Assembly: GCA_951406725.2 (NCBI GenBank) | Contig: OX597815.1 | Location: 130,324,001 to 130,388,000 of the forward strand | Direction: 5' to 3' | DNA: 64,000 nt | Source: Octopus vulgaris | Lineage: Eukaryota | Shown here: in pieces, positions 552 through 45,865 of the stretch | Position numbering within the stretch: position 1 is the stretch's first letter | How the letters are laid out: each line of letters begins with the position of its first letter | Program-made: the position numbers and the translations under genes | Notes under the pieces: model-generated | Told to the model about the DNA's origin: nothing | The model's database searches: none | What the model saw: only the letters and a program-made list of their open reading frames with translations

Positions 552-815
552 CTAGTTGAGTAAAACGTAAGCAACGTTTTGAACAATGAAGAATTTGTAC
601 CGGATTTTTGCAGAGTTTAATTTTTTTTAATGCATTTTTTTGCAATTGTCTGATAATATAGAGTTGCACTTGCCAAATTGCATCAATAAATTAACATTGA
701 TATTTTTATCACCGTTGTTACAATAATCTGAAATGGAGCTGTCAAAGCGCAATATTCGAGCAATTTTGCTATTCAACTTCAAAAAAGGATGTAAAGCAGC
801 TGGAACTGCTCGCGA
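552..815 (+). mobile_element. Mariner transposon 5' fragment (N-terminal HTH of transposase)
   Basis: ORF from 733 begins MELSKRNIRAILLFNFKKGCKAAGTAR, resembling the Mos1-type N-terminal HTH; it is truncated by LINE sequence at about 815. The 5' boundary is approximate. Confidence 0.6.
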
Positions 816-1073
816 GAGACCTCACTCTCCAGTTGGTCCACTTGGCAATCCCCACACAGACCAGATTACTGAGAATCCCAAAGAATGTGCAGAAATCATT
901 GCTGGATGCTATGCAGGCATCTTTACTGTTAAAGATCAAAATGTTCCATTTCCATCACCTCTGACACCGGACTCTATATCTACTATGAAATTTACACCAG
1001 CAATGCTACAACGCCACCTTAAGAATAAACGCAACTATGCCTCTCCTGGTCTCGATGGTGTTACATGCCTAAT

Positions 1074-3583
1074 TTTAGTGAATCTTGCAAGCATGCATTG
1101 TCCATTTTTCACATCCTACAGTATGCAATTATGACGACAAATTTTTATCGTTACAACTGCTGATTCAGACATTTCATAATATTGTTTACTAATTAATCTT
1201 AACCGCCACAATTGGTGACCCTCGACTTCAACAAAAACTTTATCGTTACAACTGGTGACCCCGAACAAGAGCATTGCAGCCTTCCCAAGAATTAACCGCA
1301 ACAACTGTCGACTCCGTGAAAAAAAGAATCGCTGCCTTCTAAAGATTCATCATCGATAAACTGGCGACCCCGACGTTGCACCATAACAGGCATCGCTACA
1401 AAAATTAAACTTCATCGCTTACAATTGGTGAACCCGTGTAAAGAGAATTGATACCTTCCAATGCTACATGCCGCTGCATTTTTTACTGATTCGAACTAAA
1501 GAACTAGAATATCTAGTTCGCTAAACCAAAGAAAAAGAATGACAACCTTCGTAACCACCAGGATGCACTCTCCATCGACCTGCTACAGAAAGTACTATAC
1601 TGCGATGCAATCAACGATGCACTTCACCACAATGCAACACTGCACAAGGAAATCGGCGACCATGAAAGCCTATAAACGCAACATTTTGACAGCTACATGC
1701 CCAGAAACTAACTGGAAGAAAATACGGAAGCCCGCACATGCAACCTTTTCGGCACACATACGCTTTTCGTCTCGTCCCGACGTACAAACCCTGCATTGTC
1801 TATGAACTTTTGCACGTACATAAGACTCACATAGACTTTCAACAACTCTTTTTCTTAGCATGCACATCTTTTCACTTTCAGCTGTAGACTTTTAACAAAG
1901 GACACTATTTTCAGCTAAGTTTGTTATTTCGCTTATTTTATTGTTCTGTTTGCACTGCACACTTTCAATTGTTTACGAGTTACACATATTCCTCGATGGA
2001 CACATCACATTCCGTGAAGCACAAATACCGCGATACACATATTCCGCGAGGCACATATTCCGTAATGCACATTCCGCGATACACAGATTCCGCGATGCAC
2101 ACATTCCGCGATGCATAAATTCTGCGATGACTCGTTCACTAAAACTGCTAAATTCCTGTGCATATCTTTTTGAATGTTCTTTATTATTATTCATATTTTG
2201 CATGTACTTTATTTTATTCGCTTTGAAAATGTTTGTATTGTTGCATACACACACCTTTCCTCAGCGCCTGGCCTTGCGCACGCATCTGCACACATGGTTA
2301 ATACACCCACAAATGCTATCTCTGTCACATTCATACGCCACACATGCCTTTCTCGATTGTTTTCCATGCTCAATGCGCCCTTGTAGACACAACTCATCTC
2401 TGTAAGATCCTAGGTCGGTCACGCATACATAGAGAAAGTTGTTTGTCCTTTACAACGCTCCAGCATGCCAAACTTTAGTTCCTGCACGATCGAGGCATAT
2501 AATAGCTCAAGTACTGGTTGGCAGCCTCAGCCTTACTACATTAATCACTGGCATATTCAATACTGTACACTGTATTTCAGCCTAGCAAGCACTCATGCAC
2601 ATGCACCTCTGTTCTGCACGTCTACTCCCTTGTTTTGCAACACGTCTGCGTCAGCTCAATTCTTCTCCCGACTCAAAGCACGTCGGATGTTCACATGCGC
2701 TGCGCTCATGTTTAGGCATAATTTCCCCCTGTTAGACCCCCGTTTGGTCACGTAATTAACAGAGAAAATTATCTGTCTCGCGCATCACTCCAGCATGCTT
2801 ACACAGTCGCCCTTGCTAACTCAGCAATTAATCACGACAACAGCACCAGACGCATTTCACTGCTGAAAAACATTTACCATGCATTTCTTTCTCTCTTTCG
2901 ATCGTTCGTTTCCTTTCCCGGAACCTCACTGGCGAGGGGAGTGATGTAGTGAATCTTGCAAGCATGAAGTGGATTCCATCGACCATAGCCAAATTTAAAT
3001 TAACACTGCAACAGAACTTTTCCCACGGTGGAACAATGGTTTTTCTCTGACAGCAGCTTTACATTTTCCAGATGCCTTTAGCTAGGCTGAAATAATGTCT
3101 TCACCACTTGACCCTTTCTAACCTCTTCTACTTCACCAAAAGCTACAATAGAGATAACAAGACCACCAACTAAATCTATTGTTCTCAATGATATGTCTAT
3201 CCTTCTGGATAGTTATAAAAGCAAGAAACACCCCAAGCAAAAATCAGTCGGTGACGACTCAACCAGCTAGAACCTTGGTCAGAGGGAGAAATGAAGTTTA
3301 CTATCAGCAACTATGAGACAACGTCCCACACCCTACAACTCTCACTAGCCCTAATTCTGTTCTCTTAACACATCATTCTATCTCTCTCGGTAATTACTAC
3401 TAAACAATGAAGAGGACACAAACACAAACTTTACTTCACATGCTTTTGGATTTATCTTAACCTGCCAGTCGAGGCAGGGTATTGTAATGTAACGGTAAAT
3501 AAATATTTCCTTAAAACTTCATGCATTGCCCATCTTTCACATTCTACCGTATGCAATTATAACAACAAATTTTTATCCTTACA
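1074..3583 (+). mobile_element. Non-coding (non-autonomous) LTR retroelement
   Basis: 3' LTR 2945-3583 (TGTAGTGAATC...CCTTACA) is preceded by PPT ggcgaggggagtga. The 5' LTR 1074-1155 matches both ends of it with an internal deletion. tRNA-Trp-type PBS motifs follow. 4-bp TSD taat/tact (1 mismatch). No retroviral ORF inside. Confidence 0.85.
1980..2130 (+). repeat. ~16-bp tandem repeat (cacatattccgcgatg), about 8-9 copies, inside the LTR element
   Basis: Directly visible degenerate units. Confidence 0.85.
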
Positions 3584-4652
3584 TACTTTTTAAACGCGGT
3601 GGGTACTTTCTTCTGAACCAACTTTTACTATTCTTTCAATTCTGTCTTGACAATGGTGCTACTCCAGAGCAGTGGAAAACTGCCAGTGTTATCCCTCTGT
3701 TCAAAAAACGTGATCGCACATCGCATGTCAACTATCGCCCCGTCAGTCTTACTAGCTGCATCGCCAAATGAATGGAATCCTGTGTCAGAGAAACCATCTG
3801 GAACTTCTGGAAATCTCAAAGCCTCATCCGGCCGTCACAATTTGGATTTATTCCTAACTCCAGCTGCTGTAATCAACTAGTCGAATTTCTCGAGGACATT
3901 CCCCGAATCACTAATGGCATCTCCTGTGTGGATGTTGTTTACCTGGACTTTGCTAAGGCTTTTAATTCTGTGCCATACAAAAGACTTATGGTGAAACTCT
4001 CTGCAGTGGGTGTAAGAGATGATCTCTATAACTGGTTGATGTCCTTCATTATCGGCCGAAAAGAGGCTGTCACATTTCTAGGACAGCACTCTTCAACCTA
4101 TGAGATGACATCTGGTGTACCACAGGGATCTGTTCTTGGTCCCCTTTTATTTGTTGCATATATTAATGACATATATGCCAACTTAAAGAATGCGACAGTG
4201 CTGAAATATGCAGATGACATCAAGCTTTACTTTGAATAAAGAGGACAGATCCTGTACACTATAGATCTTTATTACAAACAGACCTGGACACAATGCAGCA
4301 ATGGATCATGGACTGGCAACTCAAGCTGGCTGTGGATATATGTACCACCATGCATTTTGGGAGGAAAAACCCAAAGTCTACTTACTCCCTCCACAACACT
4401 AATCTCAAAAAGTCTTCTTGTGAACGTGACCTTGGTATTATTGTCGACGGCGATTTGTGTTGGACAAAACACATTGCTAAAATTGCCAAGACGGCTGAGG
4501 GTGTCTTGGCATCACTTACCACTCCGGCTATCTATCTGAGGCTTTATATAGCTATGGTGCGGCCTCGCCTGCAATTTGCATCACCGGTCTGGAATCCCTA
4601 TCTTGCCCAGGATATTAATCGTCTGGAAACTGTTCAGCGACGTTCAACCAAG

Positions 4653-6744: not shown

Positions 6745-7194
6745 ACGTAAAGTATACTAGCCATCTCAATATGGCTAACCACAAAGGGTGGGTGTTACTG
6801 TAGCTTTTAGCCCCCGGAGATCATCGTCTCCAGCTGGCTTTAGGCACACTTTTTGTGCTCTTATGATATTTGCAAAGGGAGGTCATCTCTCTCTCGTAAA
6901 CCTAAGTGATACGCACGGACTGCAGTTTCGAGGTATTTGCCTCTTGTCAACGTACGGTAATCACCGGTTTTCGATGAAGAGAGACCTGATTGCGAATATC
7001 TATATAATGCTTTTCCCAGTCCGTGCGTATCACTTAGGTTTACGAAAGAGGGATGACCTCCCTTTGCAAATATCATAAGGGCACAGAAAGTGTGCCTAAA
7101 GCCAGCTGGACACGGTGATCTCCGGGGGATAAAAGCTACAGTAACACCCACCCTTAGTGGTTAGCCATATTGAGATGGCTAGTATACTTTACGT
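6745..7194. repeat. 178-bp inverted repeat (arms 6745-6922 and 7017-7194), probably an inverted Penelope-like terminal repeat
   Basis: The arms are near-identical reverse complements (mirrored ORFs 6788+ and 7151-); a hammerhead-like motif lies at the inner end. Confidence 0.9.
6905..6965 (-). ncRNA. Minimal type I hammerhead ribozyme-like motif (core mutated)
   Basis: Minus strand: ggtgattaccgtacg-TTGACAA-gagg caaata cctc-GAAAC-tgca-GTC-cgtgcgtatcact. Stems I and II and a palindromic stem III all pair; CUGANGA carries two transitions. Confidence 0.75.
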
Positions 7195-10278: not shown

Positions 10279-10315
<37 letters not shown>

Positions 10316-11444
10316 CGTTATGGTTAAGGTGGAATCAGTGGTCACCAGTGTAACGGTTGTTGCAGATGTACAAGATGGAAGAAGAACAGCAATCGCAGTT
10401 GTAAAGAAATATTTATTTACCGTTTCTTTGAATAATGCCATGCCTCGACGGGCAGGTGTGTGTATTATGTAAAAACAATAGAGTTACCTTTTCTTGTATG
10501 TGGTTGCAGTTTATGTTTGGTCAACTGCTAGCTGCCCAACTAGGAATTAGAGGAAGATAGAGTGAATATTAAGTGTAGGAGGTAGATAAAATGAAACCTT
10601 CATTATGCCTGACATTTAAACAGCAGTGGTGTTGTGATAAGACACTGTATCATAGTTGACATTCTCACTGTAAGCCTTCTCTCAGTTAAATTATCTCACT
10701 AACTGGATTTTGCCTTTGGTCGCCTCTGCGTCATCTCCTTTTTGCCAACTCACTTTTTCCTATGGTGTTTTAGTATTTATAATTATCCAAACTAGTTAGA
10801 AAGAGAGAGACATATTATTGAGAACAATGAATTTCGTTGGCAGTCTGTTATCTCTTTTCTAGCTTTTGGTGAAATAGAAGAGGTTAGAAGGGTCAAGAGG
10901 CAAGGACATTAATCTGCTTAACGAAGGCATCTAACTACTGTCACTCACAGAAAAAAAACTATCGTTTTACTGTGAGAAAAGTGCTGTTGAATTATTAAGG
11001 GAAATTTGGCGATCAAGGATCGAATCTATGCCATGCCTGCATGAAGCTACTACATATAAATATACATATATTCAATGTCGACCTCACTCGGGAAGACACA
11101 TAGCCCGGGTTGGTGACAATGTTAATTATGTAATTATGAATTACGTGGCATGCATAGCAAAGCGTTCAGTGTGAGTTGAACTCACTCTGAACAGTTTAGA
11201 TAAAAGCTATTGCCACAGTTATAATATGTAAAACAGCTTTTGGTATGTACTCATATGTGTGTGTATGAGAGTGTGTGACTAGTCACGCGAACTTGTTAGT
11301 TCTTAATGTATCCTAAATCCGCAAAAGTACTATATTATAGTACTATAATATGCATTTTCATACCCAACAGATTAAAGAAGTTCATGGACCTCGCGTTAAT
11401 ATATGAATCTAATATTCACAACGTTTCTTTCGATTTATTGTTTT

Positions 11445-18454: not shown

Positions 18455-19410
18455 TTAAGCGGTTAGAGCGTCGGGCGCACATTGATGAAGTGATGAGTTC
18501 GATTCTTGGACCGGGTTGTGTTCTTGAGCAACACACTTTATTTCACGTTGCTCCAGTTCATTCAGAGGAAAAACTTCCGCCCGTCACCGCCCCATTTTCT
18601 CCCAAATTTGTTTATTTAAAAAGAAACTTTTTGCCAAAAACCCCCGTTTTCGGATACGGAGGTTCCCGAAAATTGCCAAAAATCGGCATTGTTAAATTCC
18701 CCCCTTCCCCCACCAAATTCTTCAATTTTGACTTTTTTCCTCCAACACTAACCCTAACCTAAAACCCAAACCCTACTCCTAACCCTAACCCTCAAACTCT
18801 AACCCTAAAACCCTAACCCTAACCCTAAAATCCTAGCCCTAGCCCTAACCCTAAAACCCTAACCCCAACCGTAACTACAGAAATGTTTTGAAATTTTTGT
18901 CCGAATCATAATGTCCGTATTTTCCCGCAAATTTAGAAAAAAAAAATTCTTAAAAAAAAAATTCACAAAAATTTTGGGTAATTTTTTTCAGAATCATAAT
19001 CTCCGTATTTTTCCGCATATTTTTTTGGGGAAAATTCTGACAAAAGTAAAAAATGAAGGAAATAGGGGTGAGAATAATTTTAAAATGCCGATTTTTGCCA
19101 ATTCTTTGCAGATTCGTATTCTCCGCAGCCCAAAAGGGGAGCTTGTATCGAAAAAAAAAAAAAATTAAAAATAAGGGTGGTTGTGGTGACGGGCGGAAAT
19201 CTTGCTCATTCAGCTGTAGAAATAAATTGCGACGTCACTAATGCCAAGCTGCATCGGCCTTTGTCTTTCCCTTGGATAACATCAGAGGGAGAAGGGTGGG
19301 GGCTGGCATGCATGGGCAACTACTGGTCTTCCATAAACAACTTTGCTCGGACTTGTGCCTCAGAGGGGAACTTTCGAAATGCAATCCCATGGACAGAAGG
19401 GGTTCTTTAC
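18455..19410 (+). mobile_element. tRNA-derived SINE (family E) interrupted by a foldback element
   Basis: Head gcggttagagcgtcgg...gagttcgattc, then ttgagcaacacactttatttcacgttgctccag; resumes at 19205; a related copy lies on the minus strand at about 49000-49295. Confidence 0.7.
18566..19204. mobile_element. Foldback/Mutator-like non-autonomous DNA transposon with internal (CCCTAA)n tract
   Basis: Long imperfect TIRs (cttccgcccgtcacc/ggtgacgggcggaaa; aaaaatcggcatt/aatgccgattttt), TSD ttcattcag/ctcattcag, degenerate CCCTAA repeats at 18749-18872. Confidence 0.75.
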
Positions 19411-20264
19411 CGTGTAAAAATTTACACTTCCTTCTCCAAGTCTAGATTCGAAATCGAATCTAAGAATTCTCGGTCGTCTAAACCGCCACGATCAACAGGC
19501 GCGAAAAAAGGTTTTCTTTGGTCTGTCAAAAAGTGATTGATCGCCTCCCTTTGACGTACGACCTCAGCCATGTCAGGCGAAGTTCAAATGCACAGGAGCT
19601 GACCTATTTAGGTAGAAACTCTACTGCAGTATGTCTGTCCTTCTAGCTGCCACGATTATTATAAATACGGTGATCAACAGACAGACAAAAAGAAAGCAAG
19701 GCCTAGCAGGCAAACGAGAAAGGTCTACGACACAACAGGTTTTGAATGACCGCAGAAACCCGAGAGAAATGTTCGAAGTTCCACGGTAGACTACTGATCT
19801 CAGATGAACTACGCACACACACACACACAGACAAGCATATTCATTTCTGATACATCACTTCCACAGATGTACCCTGTTTCTATTTCTAGTAACTCATAGC
19901 AGTTGTCAACATTTTACATGTAGTGAAGAATTATGTGTACCAACGACAAATTAAATCCAGTCAATAAATTATTTTTAACTATGAATCGATTCACTCATTT
20001 GTTTACTTCAAAGGCATACACATTCCTTTTGCATCTGTTCATCTGATGCACACACATTAACCACTACATTTGGTGACCCCCGTCAACGTATTGCGGCCTT
20101 CCCTTGAACCAGCTTTACCAACCGAACTGCATTTGAAAAATGAAGACATTTTTGTACTGCGGTTGAATTTTCCATTTCAGCACTACGCTCCGTGATCCCG
20201 TCGAAGAATCACAGCTTGCACATCACCTGACAACGAAACAGAACTGAGAGTTCCTGCGAACACA

Positions 20265-23200
20265 ATGGCTCTCCCAGAACATAACCCAGCGGAAAACACA
20301 TCCTCGGTCGACATGGCATTCCAGGCAACGATTCCTGCCACCAACCCTTTCCTTTCGTCGTCTAGTGTTTCGGAAATTTCCGACTTGCGTGCATTGGTCA
20401 CTCAGCGGGCTTCACAGATACAGGCCCTAACAGACCAGATACAAGCCCTATCCCGTGGTATCCAGCATCAAAGCAGCAGCCGATCGCGTCGATATGGTAG
20501 ACGGTCCCGAAGTCCCAGTGCTACCCACAATTCACGTGAAACGTGTTGGTACCATCGAAAATTCGTAACACGGGCACAAAAATGCACGATCCCATGCTCA
20601 TTTTCAGCACCTAGTTTGAGAAACGACACGGCCAGGAATTGAACGCGATGGAAGTTCCTGGCTCGCACCCACAAAGTCGCCTGTTTTTTGTTTGCGATCG
20701 TGTAACAGGCACGCGTTTCCTAGTTGACACCGGCGCGGAAGTCAGCATCATCCCTGTTTCCAACACTTCAGGAAAAAGAAAAGAGACACCAGTCTGTCTT
20801 CAGGCAGTTAACCACTCACCCATTCCAACCTACGGTGAACAGTCCCTAACGCTGAACTTCGGACTACGCCGCACCCTTCAGTGGGTATTTGTCATTGCTA
20901 AACTGCCGACCCCTATCTTAGGAGCCGATTTCCTGCATCATTTCGGTCTCCTGGTAGACATTAAAAACAAACGACTTGTCGACAGCACCGCACAGCTTAC
21001 TGTGCGCGGTATAGCCGTTCGTATGGCCACAGTCAGCCCAACTATATTGCTCACAACGATGACTCGTCACAGTGCTATCCTGAAAGAATATCCGGACGTC
21101 GCTCGACCAGTATTCCACAACCAGCCGATCAAGCACGAAGTCACCCATCACATCAAAACCAGCGGTCCACCTGTTGCTGCAAGACCCAGAAGGTTACCAC
21201 CTGATCGTCTCAAGGCTGTCACGCGGAAATTCCAGCACATGCTCGACCTTGGAATCATCCACCCGTCCAGCAGCAACTAGTCCTCGCCGATACACTGCAT
21301 CCCCAAAAAATCATCGACCGATTGGCAGGTTTGCGGTGATTATCGATCGCTGAATAAAAGTACTGTCAGTGATGCATATTCAGCCCCTATTTGCAGGATT
21401 TTTCTAGCTCGCTGAATGGAGCTCGCATCTTTTCCAAGATCGACCTTGTGCGAGCATACAACCAAATCCCAGTGGAACCTGCGGACATGCCGAAGATAGC
21501 AGTTACTACACCCTTCGGAATGTTTGAATTCCTGCGTATGCCTTTCGGTTTACGCAACGCGGCACAGACATTCCAAATGTTTATCGACATGGTTACTAGA
21601 GGTTTGCCTTTCGTCTATGCCTACATAGACGACATAGTCGTGGCCAGTAGCTCGGATGAAGAACATGACCAACACTTGTACCTGCTATTCAAACGCTTGC
21701 GCAAATACGGTGTTGTTATCAACCCCAGTAATAAAGGGAAGCAACTCCAAATGTACCAAAGTACGTTCGGAGTTACTTCCCTTCATGTTCTCGGGCACAT
21801 CATCGATAAGGATGGCATTCGTTCCCTTCCTGAGAAAGTCAAGGCCATCGTTATTTTTCCACCACTCACATCTCTCCGCAAATTAAAGGAGTATCTCGGT
21901 TGAATGAATTTCTATCGAAGGTTCGTACCCCACCTCGCTAAGATAGCGAAACCGCTCACGGATTTGCTACGTCAGTGAACTTGCAAAAATACGGAAATTG
22001 CCCTGAATGAAGATCAACTCGCCTCTTTTGCTGCCCTGAAAAAAAGCGTTATCCAACGCTACAATGTTGGTTTATCCAAAACCAGACGCCCCACTGTGTT
22101 TACTCGTTGATGCATCCGATTCCGGAGTTGGAGGTGTACTACAGCATCTTGTTGACGGCATATGGCAACCGTTGTCCTTCTTTTCTAAGCGGTTAAAACC
22201 CGCTGAAACAAAATGAAGCACATTCAGTCGGGAATTATTAGCGGCATACCTGGCCGTTAAGCATTTCTGTCACATGCTAGAAGGTGCCAATTTTGTCATA
22301 TACACAAACAACAGACCACTGGTATATGCATTTAACACCAAGCCGGGTCGCCACACGCCGAGAAAAATCCTCCACCTCGACTTCATATCGCAGTATACGA
22401 CGGATATACGCCACATCAAAGGGACGACCAACTTAGCAGTCGATGCACTTTCACGCACGCTGATCATTGCTATCTACACCACGGCTACAATTGATCTGGC
22501 ACGTATAGCAGCTGACCAGGAGAATGACGAAGAACTTCTAAAGCTCCGGGATTCGTCATCTCTGAAATTTCAGCATGTTCCGCTACCATCGTCCACGGCC
22601 CATATTTGGTGTGATATCTCCAACGGTCACCAACGCCCTTATGTACCACAGAAACATAGTCGAGAAGTTTTCTCTGCTCTGCATTCTCTGTCACATCCTG
22701 GTATTCGCTCCACTCAAAAGTTGATATCGACCCGTTTTGTGTGGACCAGTATCAGCAAAGATATCAACGAATGGATCAACTGCTGTGTCGTGTGCCAAAA
22801 ATCGAAAATCTACCGGCACATAAAATCACCAATCGGTTCCTTTTCGCAACCCGATGCACGATTTCAGCACGTTCACATTGACATCGTGGGACCTCTGCCA
22901 CCTTCGCAGAATTATACACATTTGCTTACCTGCGTGGATCGTTTTCCGCGGTGGCCCGAAGCTTGGCCCTTATCTGAAACTCCACCTGTCTAACACCCGT
23001 GGATATGTTTACAAAGTCAGGAAACAGCACAGCTCCCATGACTTTAGGAAACATTTTTTCACGCTAAGAGTTGCTGAAGCATGGAATAGACTGCCGGCAT
23101 CAGTTGTTAGTTGTCGGAGCACTGCATCCTTCAAAACTTCCATGCTTCCTGAGATTTGCCAACACTACACCTGATTTTCTCCCCTCCATTCGCACGCAAG

Positions 23201-24153
23201 CATGTATCTGACTCATACACTGTTCGCTTTCCAGACATTTGTACATTACTGCCTATACTTTATACGCACTTTTTGACAAGTTGTGGTGCACCTGAGCACT
23301 GTATACAATAATTTCATTATTATTTATTATATATACATCGGTAGAAACGGTCGCCAAAACTTTGATATCACAATGGGTTTCGCGTTTTGGCACACCCGCA
23401 ACAATCACCACCGACAGAGGATGTCAGTTCGATTCCCACCTCTTCACCAAGCTAACTCGTCTCCTCGGGTGTAGACACACCGGTACTGCATCTTACCACC
23501 CTTCAGCAAATGGCATGGTCGAACGTCTTCACCGCCAACTCAAGGCATCTATTAAAGCATCTTCAGGCAGTTCTCACTGGCTGGAACATCTCCCTCTCAT
23601 CCTCCTTGGTATTCGATCCACGGTTAAGAAGGAAGTTGGATATACTCTGGCTGAACTCGTCTATGGCACAGCACTCACCTTACCTGGGCAGATGATCAAA
23701 CCTGTTTCATCACAAGACTTTCATGACCCAGCACAATATGTGCACCGATTACAGACATCCATGTTGCATTTGTCACCTGCAGGCCCCAGACAACAGAACG
23801 TCGTTTCACATGTCCCAAAAGACATCAACACTTGGACTCATGTTTTCGTGAGGAATGATGGAATACCATCTCAACTTCGGCCACCATATTCCGGGCCCTA
23901 CAAAGTTATCAAAAGAGAACAGAAGTATTTCGTTCTCGATATTGGAGGTAAACGAAATACGGTATCGATTGATCGTTTGAAAAAAGCCTTCATTGGGGAG
24001 GACTTACGTTCAGCTCCCTCTGTTCCTCGAACGGACTCACCAACTCCAGCAAACACAACAGATTCTGCACAACCCCGGCACACTAAATCGGGAAGAACAG
24101 TTCGATGGCCAGCAAGGTTTGTGCAAGTTTTTCGGGTAAGTCCCAACTCTTAA
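20265..24153 (+). pseudogene. gag (3' part)-pol pseudogene of the CsRn1-like Gypsy
   Basis: Consecutive ORF fragments PR-RT-RH-IN with stops and frameshifts; the gag N-terminus is missing. Confidence 0.9.
22978..23333 (+). mobile_element. 5'-truncated CR1-like LINE 3' end inserted in the Gypsy integrase
   Basis: TRGYVYKV...RKHFFTLRVAEAWNRLP...FK plus 3' UTR and (tta) tail; integrase WPEAWPLS...[17 protein letters not shown] flanks it. Confidence 0.88.
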
Positions 24154-24734
24154 CCTACCTATATTCTTAAATGAAATGCATACATCAATACATAACTCAC
24201 ATGACTGCTTCACCCACATACAAACCCAAAGAAATCAACGAACATTTGTATACATAAAGAAAAAAGGAAAACAAAAAAACGTTGTTCCACATCAACGAAA
24301 AACTCTGTATGAACATTTACTGAACATTTCACAAACGAACTTTTTTCGATGAACATTTCTTTCATTTTTCGTATGTACATATTTTTTGCTTTCTTTTTAA
24401 AATGTTTTGCCTTCTTGTAAAAATATTTAGCTACCCGTGTGCTTACACACACTTACAACAGTCACATTCTCATGTGTGCTACCATTTGATCTTTTGCGCC
24501 AATGAAAGACACCTTGCCTCTATTAGACCTCTAGTGGGTTGAGTAATCAATAGACGCACATCTCTTTCAACGCGCCAACTTGTTTCTGCTTGGACGCATA
24601 TATGTATTGCCTACCATATGGTACACACCAACAGTAAATCTTTGCTTCATATTTTTATATTCCATGTTTTTAACATATATTCATTTGTCTGTTACAGTGG
24701 CAGTTGTCAACATTTTGCATGTAGTGAAGAATTA

Positions 24735-26068
24735 CACAACGTAACAACTTTTTTTAAAAATTGTTTATTGTATTTTTTTTTATTGTTTATCAATCCATTT
24801 TTTCTGATGTTTCCAAAAATGAAATTATTTTTTGTGTATCATCAACAGTTAAAAAAATATGTCGACTTTCAATGTTATTATATAATGTTCCGCTACTAAA
24901 TGTATGTCTAATTTTCTCTTTCAGACCAATTACTAAGTTGTGCTACTTTCAGGATGGCTACTAGAGTATGTAAAAATTCTCCAGATACATTTTGCTATGT
25001 GTGTGGTTATTATATTGGAAAAAAGCAGGTATTACATAAGATCGTGAAAGGTGCTAAATTGTGGACAGTGTACAGACTATTTCGGAATGCCCATGGGTGA
25101 CCAGGACAAACCATGGGCCCCCACATGTGATATGTGGAAGCTGTCAGTCTACTTTAGAATGATGGTTAAGAGGTACAGGACGGTCAATGCCTTTTGCCAT
25201 TCCAAGGGTATGGAGAGAGCCAAAGAACCATCACGATGACTGTTACTTTTGTATGATCGATGTGACAAAGTACAGAAAAGTGAAAAGAAGACAAGCTCTT
25301 CAGTATCCAGACATACCATCATCTAGAGCACCTGACAGTTTGCGAGTACCACTACCACCAGAAAATATTTCATCTGAAGAGTCGACAAGTAGCAGCAGCC
25401 AAGAAATGGAGGAAATTTCGTACCATGAACGACTTCAGAGCTTCACTTTCCAAATCAGAGTGAGCTAGATAATTTAATCAGGGATCTGGGTCTTTCTAAG
25501 TCAGGAGCTGAACTTTCATGAAGGTTGAAGGAATGGAATCTACTGGGGGAAGACTGCAAGACATCTGTGTACTGGAAACGCCATGAAGTGAGGATTACGG
25601 TGAGAGATTTCATCAGGATGTCGCAACTATGGAAAGAAAGTACTAAGGACGATGGAATACTCCTATGATGGGAGATTATATATGGTCTCTAGTCAGAAGA
25701 GATGAAGGTAAACACTCCAGAAAATCTCGATCGTCAAAGCACTTCTCATCTTAAGAAAAGAGTTATCAAGGTATTTACAGTGCAGAGTTTTATTGTTTCT
25801 TTTTGTTCTAATATTATACTTCATAAATACCTTTCAATATATGAAAAAGTACTAAATGTTGTGTAATTATCCTTACAATACAGAATAGATTGAACCAACA
25901 AAGTGCTGTAGAGAAAATTTACAAATAGAACGAGCGAATATGAAATTAGGAATAAATATATAACTATCGATGTTACGTCAAAACGAATGTGATTTTTGGA
26001 TTTAGTGGCAAAAAATGCATGTATGAACATTAAAAAATACAAATAAACAAAACATGTGTTACATTGTG
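24735..26068 (+). mobile_element. Internally deleted Chapaev3-like (CMC) DNA transposon inserted in the Gypsy 3' LTR
   Basis: CACAACGTAACA...TGTTACATTGTG TIRs; TTA TSD (empty site gaattatgtg in the 5' LTR); transposase remnants FCYVCG, GDQDKPWAP, MPFAIPRVWREPKNHHDDCYFC, GERFHQD. Superfamily assigned from CAC termini plus TWA TSD. Confidence 0.8.
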
Positions 26069-26344
26069 TTATGTGTACCAACGACAAAATAAGTCCAGTG
26101 AATAAATTATTTTTAACTATGAATGTGCGTACATATTTCTTTTGCATCTGTTCACCTGATGCACACGCATTAACCACTACAACCCTTTAGGTTAATAACG
26201 TGATATAACGGTGAATTCAAAGTTTTAACAACAGTGATCCCCAGAAAACCGTGACAAAATGTTCATAATAATTCTGGATGTTTACAAAATATTTCGATGC
26301 TAGGTTTTAGTATATTAATACAGGAATGTAAATATTCTTTTTTT

Positions 26345-28805: not shown

Positions 28806-29523
28806 TAATAATAATGATGATGATGATAACAACAACAACAATAATAATAATAAGGCTCCTGGCTTAAAATCTGAAACAGAAGGATTTATCGTAGCAGCCC
28901 AAGATCAATGCCTACCTACAAGGAACTACCAAGCCAACATATTCAAAAACGGCATCTTCCCAACATGCCGTGTATGTCAACAACAAAAACCATTGATCAT
29001 ATTGTCTCCATGTGCAGTCTTCTTGCGCCTACAGAGTATCTCAACAAGCATGATAGAGCTGCATAATATATTCACTGGGTAATTTGCAAAAACCTGGACT
29101 TACCCCATGATAAAAACTGGTGGGAACACAAACCACCTCCAGTGCTTGAAAATGATCACATCTCACTCCTCTGGAACTTCACCATTCGAACTGACAGAAA
29201 GATAGATGCAAATAGGCCAGACATAATATTGAATGACTTCAGGCAAAAGTCATGCCTCCTCATTGATATGACTGTCCCAATCGATATAAACGTATCTGTC
29301 AAGACCTACCAAAAACTGAGCAAGTATAAAGATCTTGAAATAGAAATTAGCAAAATGTGGAACCTGAAGACGAAAACAATACCTGTTGCCATAGGTGCCT
29401 TAGGAATGATAGCAAAAGGAGCTGATTGCTACCTAGCTCAGATACCAGGAAACCCTAAAATGGCAGAAATTCAAAAGATAGTGCTCGGAACTGCCCATAT
29501 CCTACACTAAACACTTTCTATGT

Positions 29524-32500
29524 TGTGGTGTTATGGGCTGTGATGAGATGTGGTGTTGGTGGAGAGGATTGCAGTTGAGGTAAACGGAAGTGAAAACTGC
29601 AGGGGCCGGCGGAAGATCCACGGAGGAATGCGTGGGCAAAAAGCGCGAGTTGGCATTTCGAAGAGAGACGGCAGCGTGCAAGGACGTTTTTTTCTTGACA
29701 GTGATCGCTCATCCCGCCTTGGTCAACAGGTAAGCTCTCTGTATTTCTTTCTCCCTTTTGCTTCTTTTTCCTCTATCACACTACAAGCTATTTCGGCCCA
29801 TAACTAAAAAGAAAAAAACGAATGATGAGTGTAGTCCGTATTTCGAACGATGTGGTCAAACTGTTTTGCGGTGACACGGATGTAGTCGCTTGGTTGAAGA
29901 AGATAAAGTTGGTTGCGAAACACCACGGTGTAAACGACTTAGCGAGTTTTATACCGCTGTACCTAGATGGTTCGGCGTTGGCGCTATACCTAGAAATGGA
30001 AGAAAGGGACTAGCTTAGCACGGAAAAAATAGCAATCTGTTTGATGGAGGCCTTTGCAGAAGGGATGTTCGAAGCGTACGCTCGTCTGAGGAAAGCAAGT
30101 GAACTGGCGAACAGGTCGACGTATTTGCGAATGAGCTCAGAAGATTGGCTAAACTGGCGGGATATGAAGGCGAATCACTGGACCGAACGGTTAAGTTAGC
30201 GTTTGTGACTGGCTTTCCTGACCACATGTCGGTCGAGTTGCAAAAGCTGCCGAACATTAACTCTATGGCGATGGCAGACATTATATCTCGGGCTCGCGTG
30301 CTAGTTTCGTGTTGCAGGACAACGCCGGTAGCAGCGACTGCAACAATGAAAAGTGGCCGAGCAAGGAGCAGCGGAGAGGGGTCAAACAAGAAACGTCTGT
30401 GACCATGCAAAGGACAGTGTTTCCAGTGTCAGGGCCCGCATATGGTACGAAACTGCAAGTCACTCAAGCCTGATGCCATTTGGTGCCGGTGTCGAGAAAC
30501 GGGACATATAGCCAGCGAATGTCTGCGGGGAAACGGTCTAAGGGAGACTACTGCGCCGGTAGTTATCCCTTCGGATCAATAGAAGCGCGTTTATCGTTAC
30601 CTGTAGTCGACATTCTGGTGGAGGGGAAGATGTTGCGAGCCTTTGTGGACACGGACTGTACGATGACCCTGATGACTCCAGAAGTGGCAGAGACATGGAG
30701 TGGAGAAAGCAGTATAAGGGCAGTCGACGGAAGAGAGGTACACTGTGAAGGCATTACAGATGCGCAGATTATGGTGCACAGAACAAAGCTAACGCTGCGA
30801 GTAATTGTAGTTGGCCACTTGGTGGACGAGATTGCCGTGGTGATGGGGATGGATGCAATCACCCGTTTAGGAGGTGTCACTATCAACAAGGCCGGTATAA
30901 TGTTCGGGTTTGCGGGGAAACCGTGTATGGCGAGACCGTGCATTGGTGAGAACCGCGAAGAAAAGTATGCTGCATACACCATTGAAGACCGGGTCTTTCG
31001 TGCTGTCTTCAATGGCCAGAGGTGGACAGTGGAGTGGCACTGGAAGGGAGAGCCCCCGACGTTAAAAAATAAAGTGGGTGCTATCAGAATACTCTGAAAG
31101 GAGATGGTAGAAGTGAGTTCGAGGGGGAGGTGGAGCGGTGGATTAAGGAGGGCATATTGATCCCTTGGGAAGAAGTAGAGAGCGGAGTCCTGCCGCTGAT
31201 GGCGGTGATACAGCCCACAAAGCATAAGGTCAGGCCAGTGCTTGACTTCCGAGAGCTGAATACAGGCGGCGAGGCCACATATGTCTGCGGGGACACCTTG
31301 CGAGAGTGGAGGCAAATGACAGAGGCCTCCACGATCGTCGATTTGAGGTCGACATACCTGCAGGTGTATGTGGCTGAGAGACTGTGGAAGTATCAGCTTG
31401 TCAGGTATAAGGGCCGGACATACTGTCTGACCAGGCTGGGGTTCGGGCTAAATTCAGCGCCAAAGTTTATGGCAACAATTCTTAAGGCCATCCTGGGAAA
31501 GGTGGACAGGGTAAAAAGGGCCACCAATTTGTACATTGATGACATCCTGGTGGATGACGTAATGCCTGCAACGGAGGTCATAGGTCACCTGAAGAGTTTT
31601 GGAATGATCGCCAAGCCACCAGAGGCGATGGAGGGAGGTGCTGCGCTGGGCCTCAAGCTATAGAGAGACAAGGCCGGCGCGTTGGTGTTCCGGCGAGGGA
31701 ACGAAATCCCCGAACTGGGCACCAGCATGAGTAGACGGGAACTGTTCTCAGTGTATGGGAAGCTGGTGGGACACTATTCGATTGCAGGGTGGCTCTGAAT
31801 AGCATGTAGCTTCATCAAGAGACGAGCCGAAGGAGCGAAGTGGAACGATAGAGTGGGGGAGAAAACGACCGACATGATACAGGAAGTCTTGGTCAGAGTG
31901 AGAGCAGAGGATACAGTGGGGGACAAATGGTATGTTCCCAAATCAAAGAGCGGGATCGTATGGTGTGACGCCAGTAGCATCACAATAGGGGTTGTCTTGG
32001 AAGTGGGAGGCGTCGTGGTGGAAGATGCAGTCTGGCTCAGAAAGACGGATAACTGCAACCATATAAATGTGGCGGAGTTGGATGCCGTGTCGAAGGGAGT
32101 GAACCTAGATTTGAAGTGAGGGTTGCGCACCATAGAAATTAGGACCGATTCGGTCACTGAACTTGGTTGAGTGACAACAGTTATCACCAATGAGCGGGGG
32201 TATGAACCAAAGGACCTGCTGAGATGTTGGTAAAGCGTCGATTGGGAATACTGCGTGAACTAACCACTGAGGTCAATCTGAGCTGAGTGTGATCTTTGTG
32301 CCTTCTGAGAACAGGGCAGACGTCCAGACCAGGGTAAAGCGAGCCTGGTTGCAGGTGCCAGAGGATGAAGAGCAGGCTGTGGCTGCAGTATGCCGTCTGA
32401 GTGACTCGGAGTTGAGAAGATTGCATACCATGCATCACATGGGGGTGGACAGGACATTGTTCCTAGCCAGAAAAGTTGACTCCGATGTAACAAGACGGAG

Positions 32501-33769
32501 CGTGCAGAGAGTGGTTAGCAGCTGTGAAGGTGCCAGTCCATCGACCCTGCTCCGGACGTACATGAGGCGGGAAGTATTCCAGTGGATCACAACTGAACAC
32601 GACTGGCAGTTGTCATAACACACTACCGTCAGGGGACATACCTCTCAATGGTTGATTGCGGACCGGGACGGTTGGCCATATGGAGGGAGATGAAGACGAG
32701 GACCGCAGAGGAAATCGTGTGAGTACTAAATGAGATATTCCTGGAACGAGACCCCGTGGATGAGCTGCTTCTGGATAATGGAACCTCATTTCGCTCGGAG
32801 GTGCTGAAAGACATGCGTGATGGGTGGTAGGTCAACCGCTTCTTCAGGGCGGCATACCGGCCAAGTGGAAATGGAGTGGTGAAAAGGCATCATCGTACCA
32901 TCAAGACCATGGCAGAGAGGGGCCACATTTTACCAATCGAGACCGTATTTTGATACAATATATCACCCAGGACAGGACAGGCTGAGGAGTCGGTGTGACA
33001 CAGGGCAATATTCAGGTAGGAGTGAAGGCATCCATGTACTGCATCAATGCGACCCGGGACAAAGGAAGATCACGCCTTCGTGCAGGTCGGGGAAGAAGTT
33101 TGGGTAAAATCCCCAAACGCACGGTGTACATCACGATGGGGAAAGGGAACAATAACCTCCATCAATTCGAAGAACAACGTCTCTGTCGATGGTATGCCAC
33201 GCCATGTTTTGGGTGTGCGGAAGACTGTCAATGCCTCAGAGGATGGAACCAGCAGTGGCGGGCAAGAAGATGAAGACAGCAACAGTAAGCAAGAAGATGA
33301 AGACAGCAGCAGTAGGCAAGATGAGGAAGCCAGCAGCAGCATGCCAGGAACTCAGGCCAGTAGCTGGGTCACACGGCGACCACAGAGGGAGCGACACCCT
33401 CCTCCCTGGTTGGCTGATTATGAAACCAGTTAAGGTGTGAGTTCGAGAGCGAGGAATGAGTGGGAAAGCCGGTTGAATGATCTGTAGATCGGGGGGGGGT
33501 ATGGGCTGTGATGAGCTATATAGTGTTGGTGGAGAGGATTGCAGATGAGGTAAACGGAAGTGAAGACTGCAGGGGCCGGCAGAAGAGCCACGGGGGCATG
33601 CGTGGGCCGGCAGCACGTGTGGGTAGTTCGATGAGAGACGGCAGCGTGCAAGGACGTGTTTTTTCTTGACAGTGATCGCTCATCCCGCCTAGGTCAACAG
33701 GTAAAGTCTCTGTATTTCTTTGTCCTTTTTGCTTCTTTTTCTGTTGTCATTTTTCTCCATCACAGTACA
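29524..33769 (+). mobile_element. Full-length decayed Gypsy-like LTR retrotransposon (element P1)
   Basis: LTRs 29524-29785 and about 33500-33769; 5-bp TSD tatgt; poly-G PPT; gag with zinc knuckles; PR VDTDC; RT LGFGLNSAP/YIDD; RH WCDAS..HINVAELD; IN HHMG; domain order PR-RT-RH-IN. Confidence 0.92.
29786..29797 (+). promoter_or_regulatory. Atypical primer-binding site AGCTATTTCGGC (complement of tRNA-Phe nt 1-12)
   Basis: Lies immediately after the 5' LTR CA; identical in element P2; reverse complement is GCCGAAATAGCT. Confidence 0.8.
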
Positions 33770-33965
33770 TATGTAATCTCAAATTTTAAAACAAACACAT
33801 AATTTTCTTATGGTTTCTTAAACATTCTCTAGAACAACACTATGTACAAAACCAAGTATATGGCTCCCTAAGCACAACACAAACATCAACGTATAACTTG
33901 TCTCTTGAAATCTCTGGGTGAGACTTGGAGCCAACTTGTACAAATGTAAAGCGAAAGTCAAACAT

Positions 33966-34290: not shown

Positions 34291-34612
34291 GTTTCAAATT
34301 TTGCCACAGGGCTAGCAATTTTGAGGGGAGGGTTATGTCAATACCATCAAGTCGAGTATTGAGTGGTACTTTATTTTATCGTTCCCGAAAGGATGAAAAG
34401 CAATGTTGACCTCGGCGTGATTTGAACGCTCAAGAATAATGATTATATTAAAAAAAGATTTAATAACATTTTAGACAGGTTAAAGAGCCCCACCACCACC
34501 ACCAACACCACCACCACACGTAAACACAAGAACAGCGACAGTTTCCACCAGCAAGTTCCCTTAGAAAGCAATGGTCGGCCCAGGAATAAAGAAGACACTT
34601 GCTTAGGATGTC

Positions 34613-37600
34613 TGTGGGGATGAGATGAACCGGAAGGAAAGGGCTGTGACGTCAACGGCCGAAGGGCTCCACCGGAACAGGAAGGGCGAGAGAGAAAGTG
34701 AAAGAAGCAAGACTAGAGTTGTGCTATTTCGAGTTGGGGTAGAGGTGGTGAACGGACGCGAGTGGACCAGCTGCTAACGTTACGTGAGACGGGAAGAGCA
34801 CGTGTTTGGACTTAACACAGTTAGACAGCTGTCAACGAGAGGTAGGTGAATCATATTTTATCCCCGCAGTACAGTTCCCTCATACCACAAGCTATTTCGG
34901 CTCTCGTATATGAATATATTTTTCTGTTGTTGTCCTCTTCCAGGAGATGACAGCGAAGATAAGAATCGGCAACGATGCCGTCAGACCTTTCTGTAGCAAA
35001 CGAGATGTGATCGCCTGGATCCGTAAGATCATGGTGGTGGCCAGACTACAAGTCATCAGCGATGTAGCAGGTCTCATGGCCATGTATCTGAAGGGAAGCG
35101 CGTTGGCGCTGAACTTCGAGGTGGATGAGGAAGACCAACTGAACTCGGCGAAGATCGAGCAGTGCTTCAAAGAAGCCAATACGGAAGGAATGTACGTCGT
35201 GTTTGTTAAGCTGGGAACGGTCAGGTGCGCAGGGAACAGACGACAAGTATGCTGCAGGGGTTCGGAGACTGGTCATGCTATCTGGTTTTACCGGAGAGGG
35301 CCTAGAGAAGGTGGCAAGATTGGCTTTCGCAAATGGTTTTCCCGACGACAAATGGCGACTCAAAACATCGAGCAGAAGGCACTGGCAATGACAGTTGGGG
35401 AATCCTGCGACGGAATGCGACGATCAGTAAAGAATGAGGAGAGAAAACTGCCGTGGAGCGATAGAGACCGTTCATGGGCCGGTGTTTCAAGTGTTAGGGA
35501 CCGCACATGACAAGGGACTGCGAGGAGACAAAGCCTGGACCTGTTTGCTACCGGTACAGGCAGACTGGGCATATCGCTCGAAACTGCAGCCAGGGAAAAG
35601 GCCACAAGAAAGTTTCTGCTTCTGAAACCTCCCCCACTGAAGTTTTGGTTGGGGGAAAGGCGTTCAAAGCCCTCGTGGATACGGGCTGTGGGACGTCTCT
35701 CGTGACCCCGAGGGTGACAAAAAAAAGTGGGGCGGACAAGTAGTGTTCGGGCGGTCGACGGCAGCGAAACTGGATGTAAGGGTAGCAGTGAAGTGGAGAT
35801 AGCAGTGCGGGGCACAACGCTGAGGTTTCAGGCGATTGTGATCGACCATGTGATAGACGGAATTGACGTGGTGAACGCAATCAACCGCCTTGGAGGTATC
35901 AGTGTCAGTGGAAACGTGGTTTCGTTTGGTGGTGCAGGGGCATCATGCTCTGTGAGTCTGCAACATGAGAGGGGGAAGAGCTCCGTGGGGAATTGTGCGG
36001 CTTACACCACCGAGGACAAAGATTTTCGGGTGGTGCGATACAAGGGCTAGACATACTGTTTTACTAGGCTGGATTACGAGCTAAATTCTGCGCCAAAGAT
36101 CATGGTGACAGTGCTCAAATCTATCCTGGGGATGGTGGACAAGATTTAAAAGGCCACCAATTCCTATATAGACAACATACAACATCTTGGTAGATGAGAC
36201 TGTGGTGTCTGCCGCAGAGATTGTAAATCATCTAAAGAAGTTCGGGCTGACTGCGAAGCAACCGGAGCCAATGGGTGGAGGAACTGCACTGAGGTTCAAG
36301 CTTCAAAGAAAAAAAAAACAGGTGTATTGGTGTTTCGGAGGGGGAATGAGATCCCGGAGCTGGGTACCAGCGTCAACAGGCGAGAGCTATTCTCGGTGTG
36401 TGGGAGAGCAGTGGGTCACTATCCAATCGCAGGGTGGCTACGAATATCGTGCAGCTACATCAAGAGACAAGCAGACGGAACAAAGTGGGAGAGGAAACGG
36501 TGGTGATGATGCAGGAGATCCTAAAGAGGGCAAGAGCAGAAAACCCAGTAAGAGGAAACTGGTACGTGCCCAAACTGGAGAATGGGACCGTATGGTGCGG
36601 AGCTAGCTGCATAGCGATAGGGGTTGTTCTGGAAATCGGAGGCGTCGAAGTGGCTTCGAAAAGCAGATGATTACAACCATATCAACGTGGCTGAGTTGGA
36701 CGGAGTGCTGAAGGGAGTGAATCTGGCCCTGAAATGGGGGCTGCATTCCACCGAAATCCGAACCGATTCGGCTACCGTGTTCACCGATGAAAAGAGAGTT
36801 TGAACCAAAGGGGATGCAGAGAGATTAGTAAAGCGCCGCCTAGGGTTCTAGGAGAGCTAGCTGCCGAATTTGGTTTGAAGCTGGGCGTAGTCTTTATGCC
36901 TTCAGAAAGGAACAAGGCAGATATTTCAACCAGGGTGAAAAATACCTGGTTGGCGGAGCCGAGAGATTCGAAATGGGATAGCTGTAGTGTGTCGGCTAAG
37001 TGACTCGGAACTAAGGAGAGTGCATGCCATGCATCATATGAGCGTAGATAGAACCCTGTATCTTGCCAGAAGGGTTGACTCCTACGTTATTAGACAGAAC
37101 ATTCAAAAAGTGGTCGGGAACTATAATAGGTGTCAATCCATCGACCCTGCTCCGGGTGTGAGCGAGCAGGGAAACATCTCGGTAGAGCACAACTGGAGAC
37201 GATTGGTGGTGGATGTGACACACTACCGGCAGGGGACGTATCTCTCGATGATCGACTGGACCGGGTCGATTGGCCATATGGATGGAAATGAAGACAGGCA
37301 CTGCAGATGAGTTGCACGTATCTTGAATTAGATATTCGTGGAGCGGGGCCCTGTGGATGAATTGCTGATGGACAACGGCACTGCATTTCGTTCGAAGATA
37401 CTGAAAGAGATGCTTGATAAGTAGAATGTGTACCGCTTCTTCAGAGCAGCATACAGGCCGAGTGGAAATGATATCGTGGAAAGGCACCATGGTGAAGACG
37501 GGACACTAGAAGTGGTATTCTGGTACAATATATTGCTCCGACCAGGACAGGCCAAAGAGTCCGTTCCACACAGAGTGATATTCAGATATGAATGGTGGCA

Positions 37601-37627
37601 TCTGAGTAAACCATCAAAATGCCCTGC

Positions 37628-37686
<59 letters not shown>

Positions 37687-38274
37687 TATCTTAGTGTAGG
37701 TAGGGGATGAAGTCTGGGTTAAGACCCTGAAGATACACTGCACATCTCAGTGGAACAGAGAAACAGTAACGGCTGTTAATTCCAAAATAACGTTTCGGTG
37801 GATGGAATGCCGCGTCACATCTTGGATGTTTGCAGAACTGTCGCTTCGTTGGACGACGAAGGTGGAGAAGGGGAAGAGAACGAGGATCCATTCCTGCGGA
37901 GATCATAGTGCGCGAGGCATCCAACCGAGTGGATAGCAGATCTCAACACGGAGTGAAGAGAAGAGGTGATCTTTGAGATCAGGCGAGTGTGTGGGGATGA
38001 GATGAACCAGAAGGAAAGGGCTGTAGCGTCAACGGCTGAGAAGCCCCAGCGGAACAGGAAGGTGCGAGAGATGAAGTGAGGGGAACAAGACTAGGATCGT
38101 ACTCTTTCGGCCTGGGGCAGTGGTGGTGAACGAGCGAACGATTGGTACTAGTAGCTGCTAACGTTAGGTAAGTTGGGAATGGTACGTGTTTAGACTTAAC
38201 AGAGCTGGACAACCAACTACGAGAGGTAGGTGAACCGTATTTTGTTCCCCGCATTACAGTGCCCTCATACCACA
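34613..38274 (+). mobile_element. Second decayed Gypsy-like LTR retrotransposon of the same lineage (element P2), inserted in a SINE B fragment
   Basis: LTRs 34613-34889 and 37990-38274 (TGTGG...CCACA); TSD atgtc/gtgtc; gag/PR (LVDTGC)/RT/RH/IN remnants homologous to P1, with an internal RT deletion. Confidence 0.9.
34890..34901 (+). promoter_or_regulatory. Atypical primer-binding site AGCTATTTCGGC (complement of tRNA-Phe nt 1-12)
   Basis: Lies immediately after the 5' LTR of P2; identical to the P1 site. Confidence 0.8.
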
Positions 38275-45569: not shown

Positions 45570-45865
45570 AAGGGTTCTCAGTAGTGTTGGTAGAGGGGCT
45601 CCGAAAGGGGTCTCAGAAAATAGCATAGGTAGGGTGGGCTCTGAAAAGAGTCTCAGGAAGTAGCGTATGTAGAGGGGCTCCAAAAATGGTCTCAGGGCAT
45701 CGTGTAGGTAGAGGGGCTCCAAAAGGGGTCTCAGGGAGTAGCGTAGGTAGGGGAGCTCCAAAAGGGATCTCAGGGAGTAGCATAGGTAGGGGAGCTTCAA
45801 AAGGGGTCTCAGGGAGTAGCGTAGGTGGTGGGGGGCTATGAAAGGGGTCTTAGGGAGTAGCGTCC
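45570..45865. repeat. ~39-bp G-rich minisatellite, about 7 copies
   Basis: Unit gtagcgtaggtagaggggctccaaaaggggtctcaggga. Confidence 0.9.

Follow-up and report, generated by a model that had tools for sequence, protein, structure and literature searches.

We describe a non-coding Gypsy-type LTR element of Octopus vulgaris in which the junction between the end of the LTR and the primer-binding site (PBS) for tRNA-Trp recurs six times in succession. The element lies on the plus strand at 1074-3583 of a 64,000-nt stretch of contig OX597815.1 (the window), and the array of junctions extends from 1144 to 1438. The array is real, statistically clear and unusual. The best explanation, which we favor with moderate confidence, is that it represents the inherited junction array of a non-autonomous family of the CsRn1 type, possibly providing spare priming modules. 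An origin by old tandem duplication, with inheritance through the family, is highly probable; real use of the downstream modules is put forward tentatively.

The element is about 2.5 kb long (2510 bp) and contains the parts expected of a non-autonomous LTR retrotransposon, namely two direct LTRs, a PBS, a polypurine tract (PPT) and a target site duplication (TSD), with neither gag nor pol. It sits inside ORF2 of a non-LTR retrotransposon, a fragment of which flanks it on the left (727-1073, plus strand, in an open frame at 727-1134) and whose reverse transcriptase (RT) domain is matched by Pfam at 3772-4236. Its motifs suggest that this host ORF2 fragment is CR1/L2-like. The TSD copies are TAAT at 1070-1073 and TACT at 3584-3587 (3/4 identical). 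A TSD of 4 bp is favored over one of 5 or 6 bp because the host frame resumes in phase, the frames on both sides starting at position mod 3 = 1 around the 2510-bp insert.

The 3′ LTR (2945-3583, 639 bp, TG...CA) directly follows the PPT (2931-2944) and stops at the position of junction 1; no additional unit follows it. The 5′ LTR (1074-1155, 82 bp) ends at junction 1, aligns to both ends of the 3′ LTR and has suffered a 557-bp internal deletion at a CATG microhomology; its second base is changed and both of its ends are kept. The pair is identical at 74 of 82 positions (8 mismatches, 90%; 95% interval of the divergence 4-18%). Because a related LTR at 10349-11054 aligns along the 639-bp form, the long LTR is the family state, and a reading of the element as a TRIM with 82-bp LTRs was dropped. 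With both LTRs whole, the reconstructed length is about 3.07 kb. No coding remnants of Gypsy were found in the ~1.8-kb interior by tblastn against Gypsy ORFs (best E 0.14), and the non-coding internal region at 1466-2930 gave no Pfam match in any of its three ORFs. Its 3′ end bears, by eye only, a short likeness to the C-terminal motif of integrase. The interior also holds a 16-bp tandem repeat (7.7 copies, 2009-2129, TRF) and a diverged duplication of ~130 bp (about 2365-2468 and 2694-2798).

A first-pass annotation of this DNA had reported six junction motifs with dissimilar spacers, which it took for U5-end/PBS cassettes stacked within a non-coding LTR element. All six motifs were found where it had placed them, and the anatomy agrees with such a stack. 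The TGG starts of the six PBSs fall at 1158, 1213, 1253, 1306, 1362 and 1426, giving consecutive spacings of 55, 40, 53, 56 and 64 bp. Junction 1, however, is the ordinary LTR/PBS junction at the true end of the 5′ LTR, and therefore five junctions are extra. The assignment to tRNA-Trp also holds: the 18-mer is the start of the reverse complement of the tRNA-Trp printed in the available part of bioRxiv 10.1101/400127, and an identical 18-mer is given for the primer of avian proviruses in that of PMC5029493. The full 18-nt PBS, on the other hand, is present in none of the units, and junction 5 lacks its CA.

Junctions were scored with a model of 16 positions, comprising ACA, 2 nt and a 13-nt PBS. 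Six sites of the array score at least 11/16 and five at least 12; not one of 2000 dinucleotide shuffles of the array reaches either count (at the lower threshold, mean 0.08 and maximum 2). The densest other 300 bp of the window holds three sites of at least 11 and one of at least 12. Outside the array, sites of at least 12 number only two on the plus strand and one on the minus strand, and one of these is the PBS of a coding Gypsy at 20071. No second full array was found within the 64-kb window, where dispersed copies of the element amount to one diverged partial relative. TRF and a repeat finder leave the array unreported because its units are too diverged. The array region contains no tRNA gene (ARAGORN 0) and no meaningful Rfam match, a single chance match of E 0.12 occurring in 1000-3700. 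A sigma-70 scan, irrelevant to such an element, gave chance-level hits only.

Each unit consists of a PBS, a middle of 13-37 nt, an LTR-end motif and 2 nt. Each downstream PBS accordingly lies 2 nt behind an LTR-end-like motif, the terminal ACA of which is kept in four of the five. Against the 13-mer, PBS1 to PBS6 carry 4, 1, 1, 5, 1 and 3 edits. Unit 1 (1158-1212; this and all following units on the plus strand) has a degenerate PBS1, exceeded in this respect by PBS4 alone (4 edits in 13, or else a single short deletion), an A/T-rich spacer and LTR-end motif 2 (1199-1210). Unit 2 (1213-1252) joins PBS2, with one inserted base, to a short spacer and motif 3 (1239-1250), and unit 3 (1253-1305) joins PBS3 (12/13) to a Gypsy-like leader, containing a 10-nt box at 1276-1285, and motif 4 (1292-1303). 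Unit 4 (1306-1361) comprises a decayed PBS4, a leader with the box at 1331-1340 and a decayed motif 5 without CA; unit 5 (1362-1425) comprises PBS5, with 14 matches to the tRNA complement over its first 15 nt, a spacer and motif 6. PBS6 (10/13) with a leader copy like those of units 3 and 4 follows at 1426-1465.

Identity between units averages 57% (range 49-65%), against a mean of 48% and a maximum of 51% in shuffles. The LTR-end (integrase att) segments have a mean identity of 0.66 (shuffled 0.47, maximum 0.55; 300 shuffles) and the PBS segments one of 0.67 (shuffled 0.44, maximum 0.50), whereas the 22 nt behind the PBS are on average not conserved (0.47 vs 0.46 when shuffled), a contrast that is partly circular since the units were defined by att and PBS. 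Junctions 1 and 3, including the PBS start, are identical at 19 of 20 positions, and the spacers that flank them are unlike. The reported dissimilarity of the spacers is true of 11 of the 15 pairs of middles; three pairs are clearly alike (0-1 of 1000 shuffles) and one is borderline (42 of 1000). The middles of units 3, 4 and 6 match one another (1, 0 and 1 of 1000 shuffles), and each also matches the one leader that the coding Gypsy has (0, 17 and 8 of 1000). No such matches are seen for the middles of units 1, 2 and 5, though unit 5 does resemble units 1 and 2 when att is added to the comparison (1-14 of 500). Spacers that can be aligned differ at 30-35% of aligned columns.

Two types of LTR end alternate along the array. 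Ends 2 and 4 match the LTR end of the coding Gypsy at 10/12 each, compared with 8/12 for the element's own end, and they are of a type that is also similar to the inverted repeat at the 5′ end of the element itself. A dimeric (AB-AB) period was not accepted although the end types alternate, the block identities (54-62%) being no higher than single-unit values. LTR ends that were held out rank within the top 0.004-0.03% of the window when scored with a weight matrix made from the six ends; in leave-one-out scoring, indels gave ends 5 and 6 low values, and the score of the relative's first end, shifted by one base, was disregarded.

The coding Gypsy, a degenerate copy at 19899-26181 on the plus strand with one Trp PBS (20071-20083), is a candidate relative of the helper family. 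Pfam detects protease, RT, RNase H and integrase domains, and CHCC gag and GPY motifs are present. Its homologs among the named matches are Octopus proteins, then Pol proteins of flatworm, tick and spider; a fragment of its integrase has a 98% identical match in O. sinensis, and 14 of the 24 first-listed matches are named Octopus proteins. Judged from these motifs and the list of homologs, it appears to be of the CsRn1 type. It shares the leader and the first 9 LTR bases with the element, and its leader holds no convincing second att/PBS junction (best 11/16). Its LTRs share 21 bp (19899-19919 and 24700-24720) upstream of the TGTAGTG that mirrors the LTR end; it has no clear PPT or TSD, and the start of its LTR is uncertain. 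The 3′ LTR is split by a 1.33-kb insertion (24735-26068) whose terminal inverted repeats are weak and which is probably the relic of a DNA transposon, and a LINE 3′-end-like fragment, presumably of the CR1/L2-like kind, interrupts the integrase at about 22990-23295.

Elsewhere in the window, two degenerate LTR elements of another Gypsy type (about 29500-33800 and 34600-38000; protease and RT matches) showed no repeated junction in the stretches inspected. Other features include a MITE-like inverted repeat at 6745-7194 (178-nt arms, 96% complementary, 94 nt apart), a degenerate (AACCCT)n telomere-like array inside an A/T-rich repeat (18744-18875), and a 39-bp tandem repeat (45580-45863, 7.2 copies) that lies within a minus-strand open frame of 220 codons.

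In its workings the element resembles a non-autonomous LTR element that depends on a helper of the CsRn1 type. The CsRn1 lineage is characterized, in the available portion of PMC3630058, by a tRNA-Trp PBS, a 4-bp TSD and CHCC gag and GPY motifs, and in that of PMC6238403 it is reported from 9 of 12 cephalopod species. With the CsRn1/Kabuki lineage of Ty3/Gypsy the element has the Trp PBS and the 4-bp TSD in common. Since no coding remnants, and hence no CHCC gag or GPY motif, were detected in it, it is filed as a dependent of the lineage and not as a member. It differs also in its six junctions and its non-coding nature, whereas the window's Gypsy and, in the part of its record available, CsRn1_Cv1 have one PBS each.

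Because the units are 49-65% identical and the LTRs 90%, the array is older than this insertion, and we infer that it has passed through reverse transcription. The partial, diverged relative on the minus strand (10311-11054) bears on the same point. It is made up of an LTR (10349-11054; 457 of 566 aligned columns identical, with many indels), an 8-nt PBS start at 10347, a 37-nt unit ending in a second LTR-end motif, and then (CA)n. The unit is identical to unit 2 in 29 of 39 columns, and there is no equivalent of unit 1. The second end is the same 7-mer as the relative's own LTR end; this 7-mer occurs five times in the 128 kb of both strands, and four of the five are LTR-end motifs of the element's family. 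Taken alone, the spacer shows a modest likeness to unit 2 (22 of 2000 shuffles), which scored highest among the five units compared, and 86 of 127,942 window positions, about a third of them self-matches, score as well. The relative has no recognizable TSD (TATA vs CACA), its second end abutting the (CA)n run, and none of the rest of the element's interior lies behind its unit. With these reservations, it supports an array that predates the insertion.

We propose that repeated old tandem duplication of a 40-64-bp piece would have built the array. The piece would have run from the final 12-20 nt of the LTR, its integrase att end, across a 2-nt gap and the tRNA-Trp PBS into the beginning of the leader, and because it straddles the LTR/PBS junction every copy would be a potentially complete module. 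Similar middles together with a match to the Gypsy leader are the outcome expected from tandem duplication across the U5/PBS/leader junction. A single ancestral unit is unsupported, 12 of the 15 pairs of middle segments being without clear similarity. The duplication route and the presence of the array throughout the family are what we infer from the units and one partial relative.

In the standard model of reverse transcription, the position of tRNA priming sets the end of the LTR; the process is outlined in the available text of PMC10886601. Priming at the first PBS would give a normal element. If a downstream PBS were primed instead, the LTRs of the cDNA would be extended by entire units and would still end in an att-like CA, and if plus-strand transfer went to a downstream PBS, entire units would be lost. 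The array could in this way provide spare priming sites, with a number of units that changes between copies, and multiple priming from it is plausible. The relative fits both predictions, in that it lacks unit 1 and stops at an att, and a deletion between short att homologies would fit as well. The present copy shows no sign of downstream priming: the end of its 3′ LTR at junction 1 means that PBS1 was used in its last cycle.

That observation is also compatible with neutrality, in which the same inherited duplications are carried along, only PBS1 is used and the extra units decay. This alternative we consider possible but rather unlikely. It accords with the decay of PBS4, PBS6 and att 5, which has lost its CA, to about the neutral level, and with the other internal repeats of the element. 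Internal tandem repeats are common in non-coding LTR elements. They are described for 38 non-coding Culex LTR families in the available part of PMC3286476. It accords less well with three nearly intact PBSs in units whose spacers no longer align, with the near identity of junctions 1 and 3 between unlike spacers, or with a relative that stops at an att-like end. PBS2, PBS3 and PBS5 each differ from the tRNA complement by a single edit, and a decay of ~5% per copy after insertion would leave roughly that many. Under neutral decay, the probability that at least three of five PBSs have at most one edit is 0.20, 0.026 and 0.006 at assumed pair divergences of 30, 40 and 45%, respectively; the measured 30-35% lies near the non-significant end, and at 30% the test for selection is not significant. 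The 4 edits of PBS1 exceed the expectation from decay after insertion (P 0.003-0.024), and by eye a single 7-nt deletion with respect to the relative's sequence would also explain them.

A stronger form of the functional reading would see in the array a selected battery of att, PBS and box modules, any of which could be primed and integrated. The LTR boundary and the number of units would vary through reverse transcription, the family would compete with its single-PBS helper for primer tRNA-Trp, and the relative would be a solo LTR extended by one unit. We regard this as doubtful. The box is a 10-nt segment that begins 23-26 nt from the PBS start in units 3 and 4 and in the coding Gypsy, and it could pair with the variable-loop region of tRNA-Trp, a suggestion we offer only as a lead. 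A 9/10 match, wobble allowed, is present at three of eight PBS sites and in 4.6% of random 30-nt stretches, the box having been chosen after the data were seen and its three sites being homologous. It resembles the extra primer contacts of HIV-1 and avian sarcoma virus reviewed in the available part of PMC3185550. The fly CsRn1_Cv1 leader, in the portion available, is without the box and by eye continues the tRNA complement through the T-loop.

Less probable than either is the capture of LTR ends from related families, as raised in the first-pass annotation. Other Trp-primed Gypsy families, their RNAs packaged together with that of the element, would have donated the units one by one when the template was switched at the PBS they have in common, and the array would be a record of past helpers. 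The alternation of two end types speaks for this, as do the better match of ends 2 and 4 to the Gypsy LTR end than to the element's own and the resemblance of the middle of unit 3 to the Gypsy leader (20/28 columns), no weaker than that to its neighbors (17-18 of 27-29). The Gypsy LTR match, however, ends after ~12 nt, and the end type in question is reminiscent of the element's own 5′-end inverted repeat. Spacers trimmed of PBS and ACA gave at best 30 of 500 shuffles against the last 45 LTR nt of one other family, the only one compared, and several of them match each other and the Gypsy leader. Capture is on this evidence improbable.

Still more improbable is a role as decoy or aid, in which the extra PBSs would soak up primer tRNA-Trp or 3′ tRNA fragments or help packaging. 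Several near-intact PBSs do lie within the 5′ leader, and 3′ tRNA fragments complementary to the PBS repress mouse LTR elements according to the available text of 10.64898/2026.01.22.698655. The att-like end at 2-nt spacing before each PBS would be left unexplained, and extra target sites should, if anything, raise silencing in cis. Folding of the array RNA yielded no stable structure, and the array is less structured than its shuffles (-43 vs -52 ± 5 kcal/mol). Finally, the lack of a second full array in the 64-kb window might suggest something confined to this locus, either a local duplication that followed the insertion, an alternative named in the annotation itself, or an artefact of assembly. 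Both are very improbable given an array older than the insertion, units far more diverged than the LTR pair and unreported by TRF, and a relative that carries a similar unit.

The inherited junction array that we favor has partial parallels among known systems. Cassandra arrays are said to be tandem-array TRIMs with several LTR-end/PBS junctions per locus. In tandem-array TRIMs, whole LTR and internal units alternate, each with a PBS and a PPT. LTR-11_DR arrays, in the available portion of PMC10886601, likewise have several junctions per locus, as here; in the octopus element, by contrast, only 12-20 nt of the LTR end are repeated, with no PPT, within one element and in strongly diverged units. 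LTR sequence derived from tRNA or 5S, as in Helenus, Ajax and Cassandra, was detected by neither ARAGORN nor, beyond the chance match, Rfam. At 2510 bp, or about 3.1 kb when whole, the element also exceeds the limit of <1 kb set for TRIMs in the available text of PMC10886601 and PMC13570524. With the TRIM/LARD continuum and cqUNK of Culex it has LTRs, PBS, PPT, TSD, internal repeats and the absence of protein in common; their repeats are not described as copies of LTR-end/PBS junctions in the available parts of PMC3286476 and PMC13570524.

Two further cases involve the PBS region itself. cqgypsy_1 of Culex (Osvaldo lineage) has an atypical PBS region in which 26 nt of the LTR end are duplicated, the two copies being due to insertion of a tRNA dimer in the account available in PMC3286476, whereas here there are six junctions and no tRNA gene. 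The 23-nt insertion of the HIV-1 MAL type places a second PBS-like sequence just downstream of the PBS; it is one partial copy, for which the available text of PMC3185550 describes no preceding att end, whereas the octopus element has five extra copies, each after an LTR-end motif. We found no description of a natural array of att/PBS junctions in the full-text literature; Repbase, Dfam and subscription journals lay outside this search, and the absence is to that extent weakly tested. Supplementary files of related papers that were searched held no further copies of the array, one unrelated match aside.

A single PBS and a fixed LTR end are the rule assumed for LTR elements, by annotation tools as well. 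Dual initiation from two PBSs was reportedly observed by Voronin and Pathak in 2004 in engineered HIV vectors. If the units are neutral, the array would be a curiosity of repeat anatomy. If several att/PBS modules are used, it would record in the genome alternative priming and plus-strand transfer, hitherto studied in engineered two-PBS retroviral vectors. Such use would be testable from genome sequence alone, by where LTRs end, and would reveal a route by which a parasitic element may gain primer from its helper.
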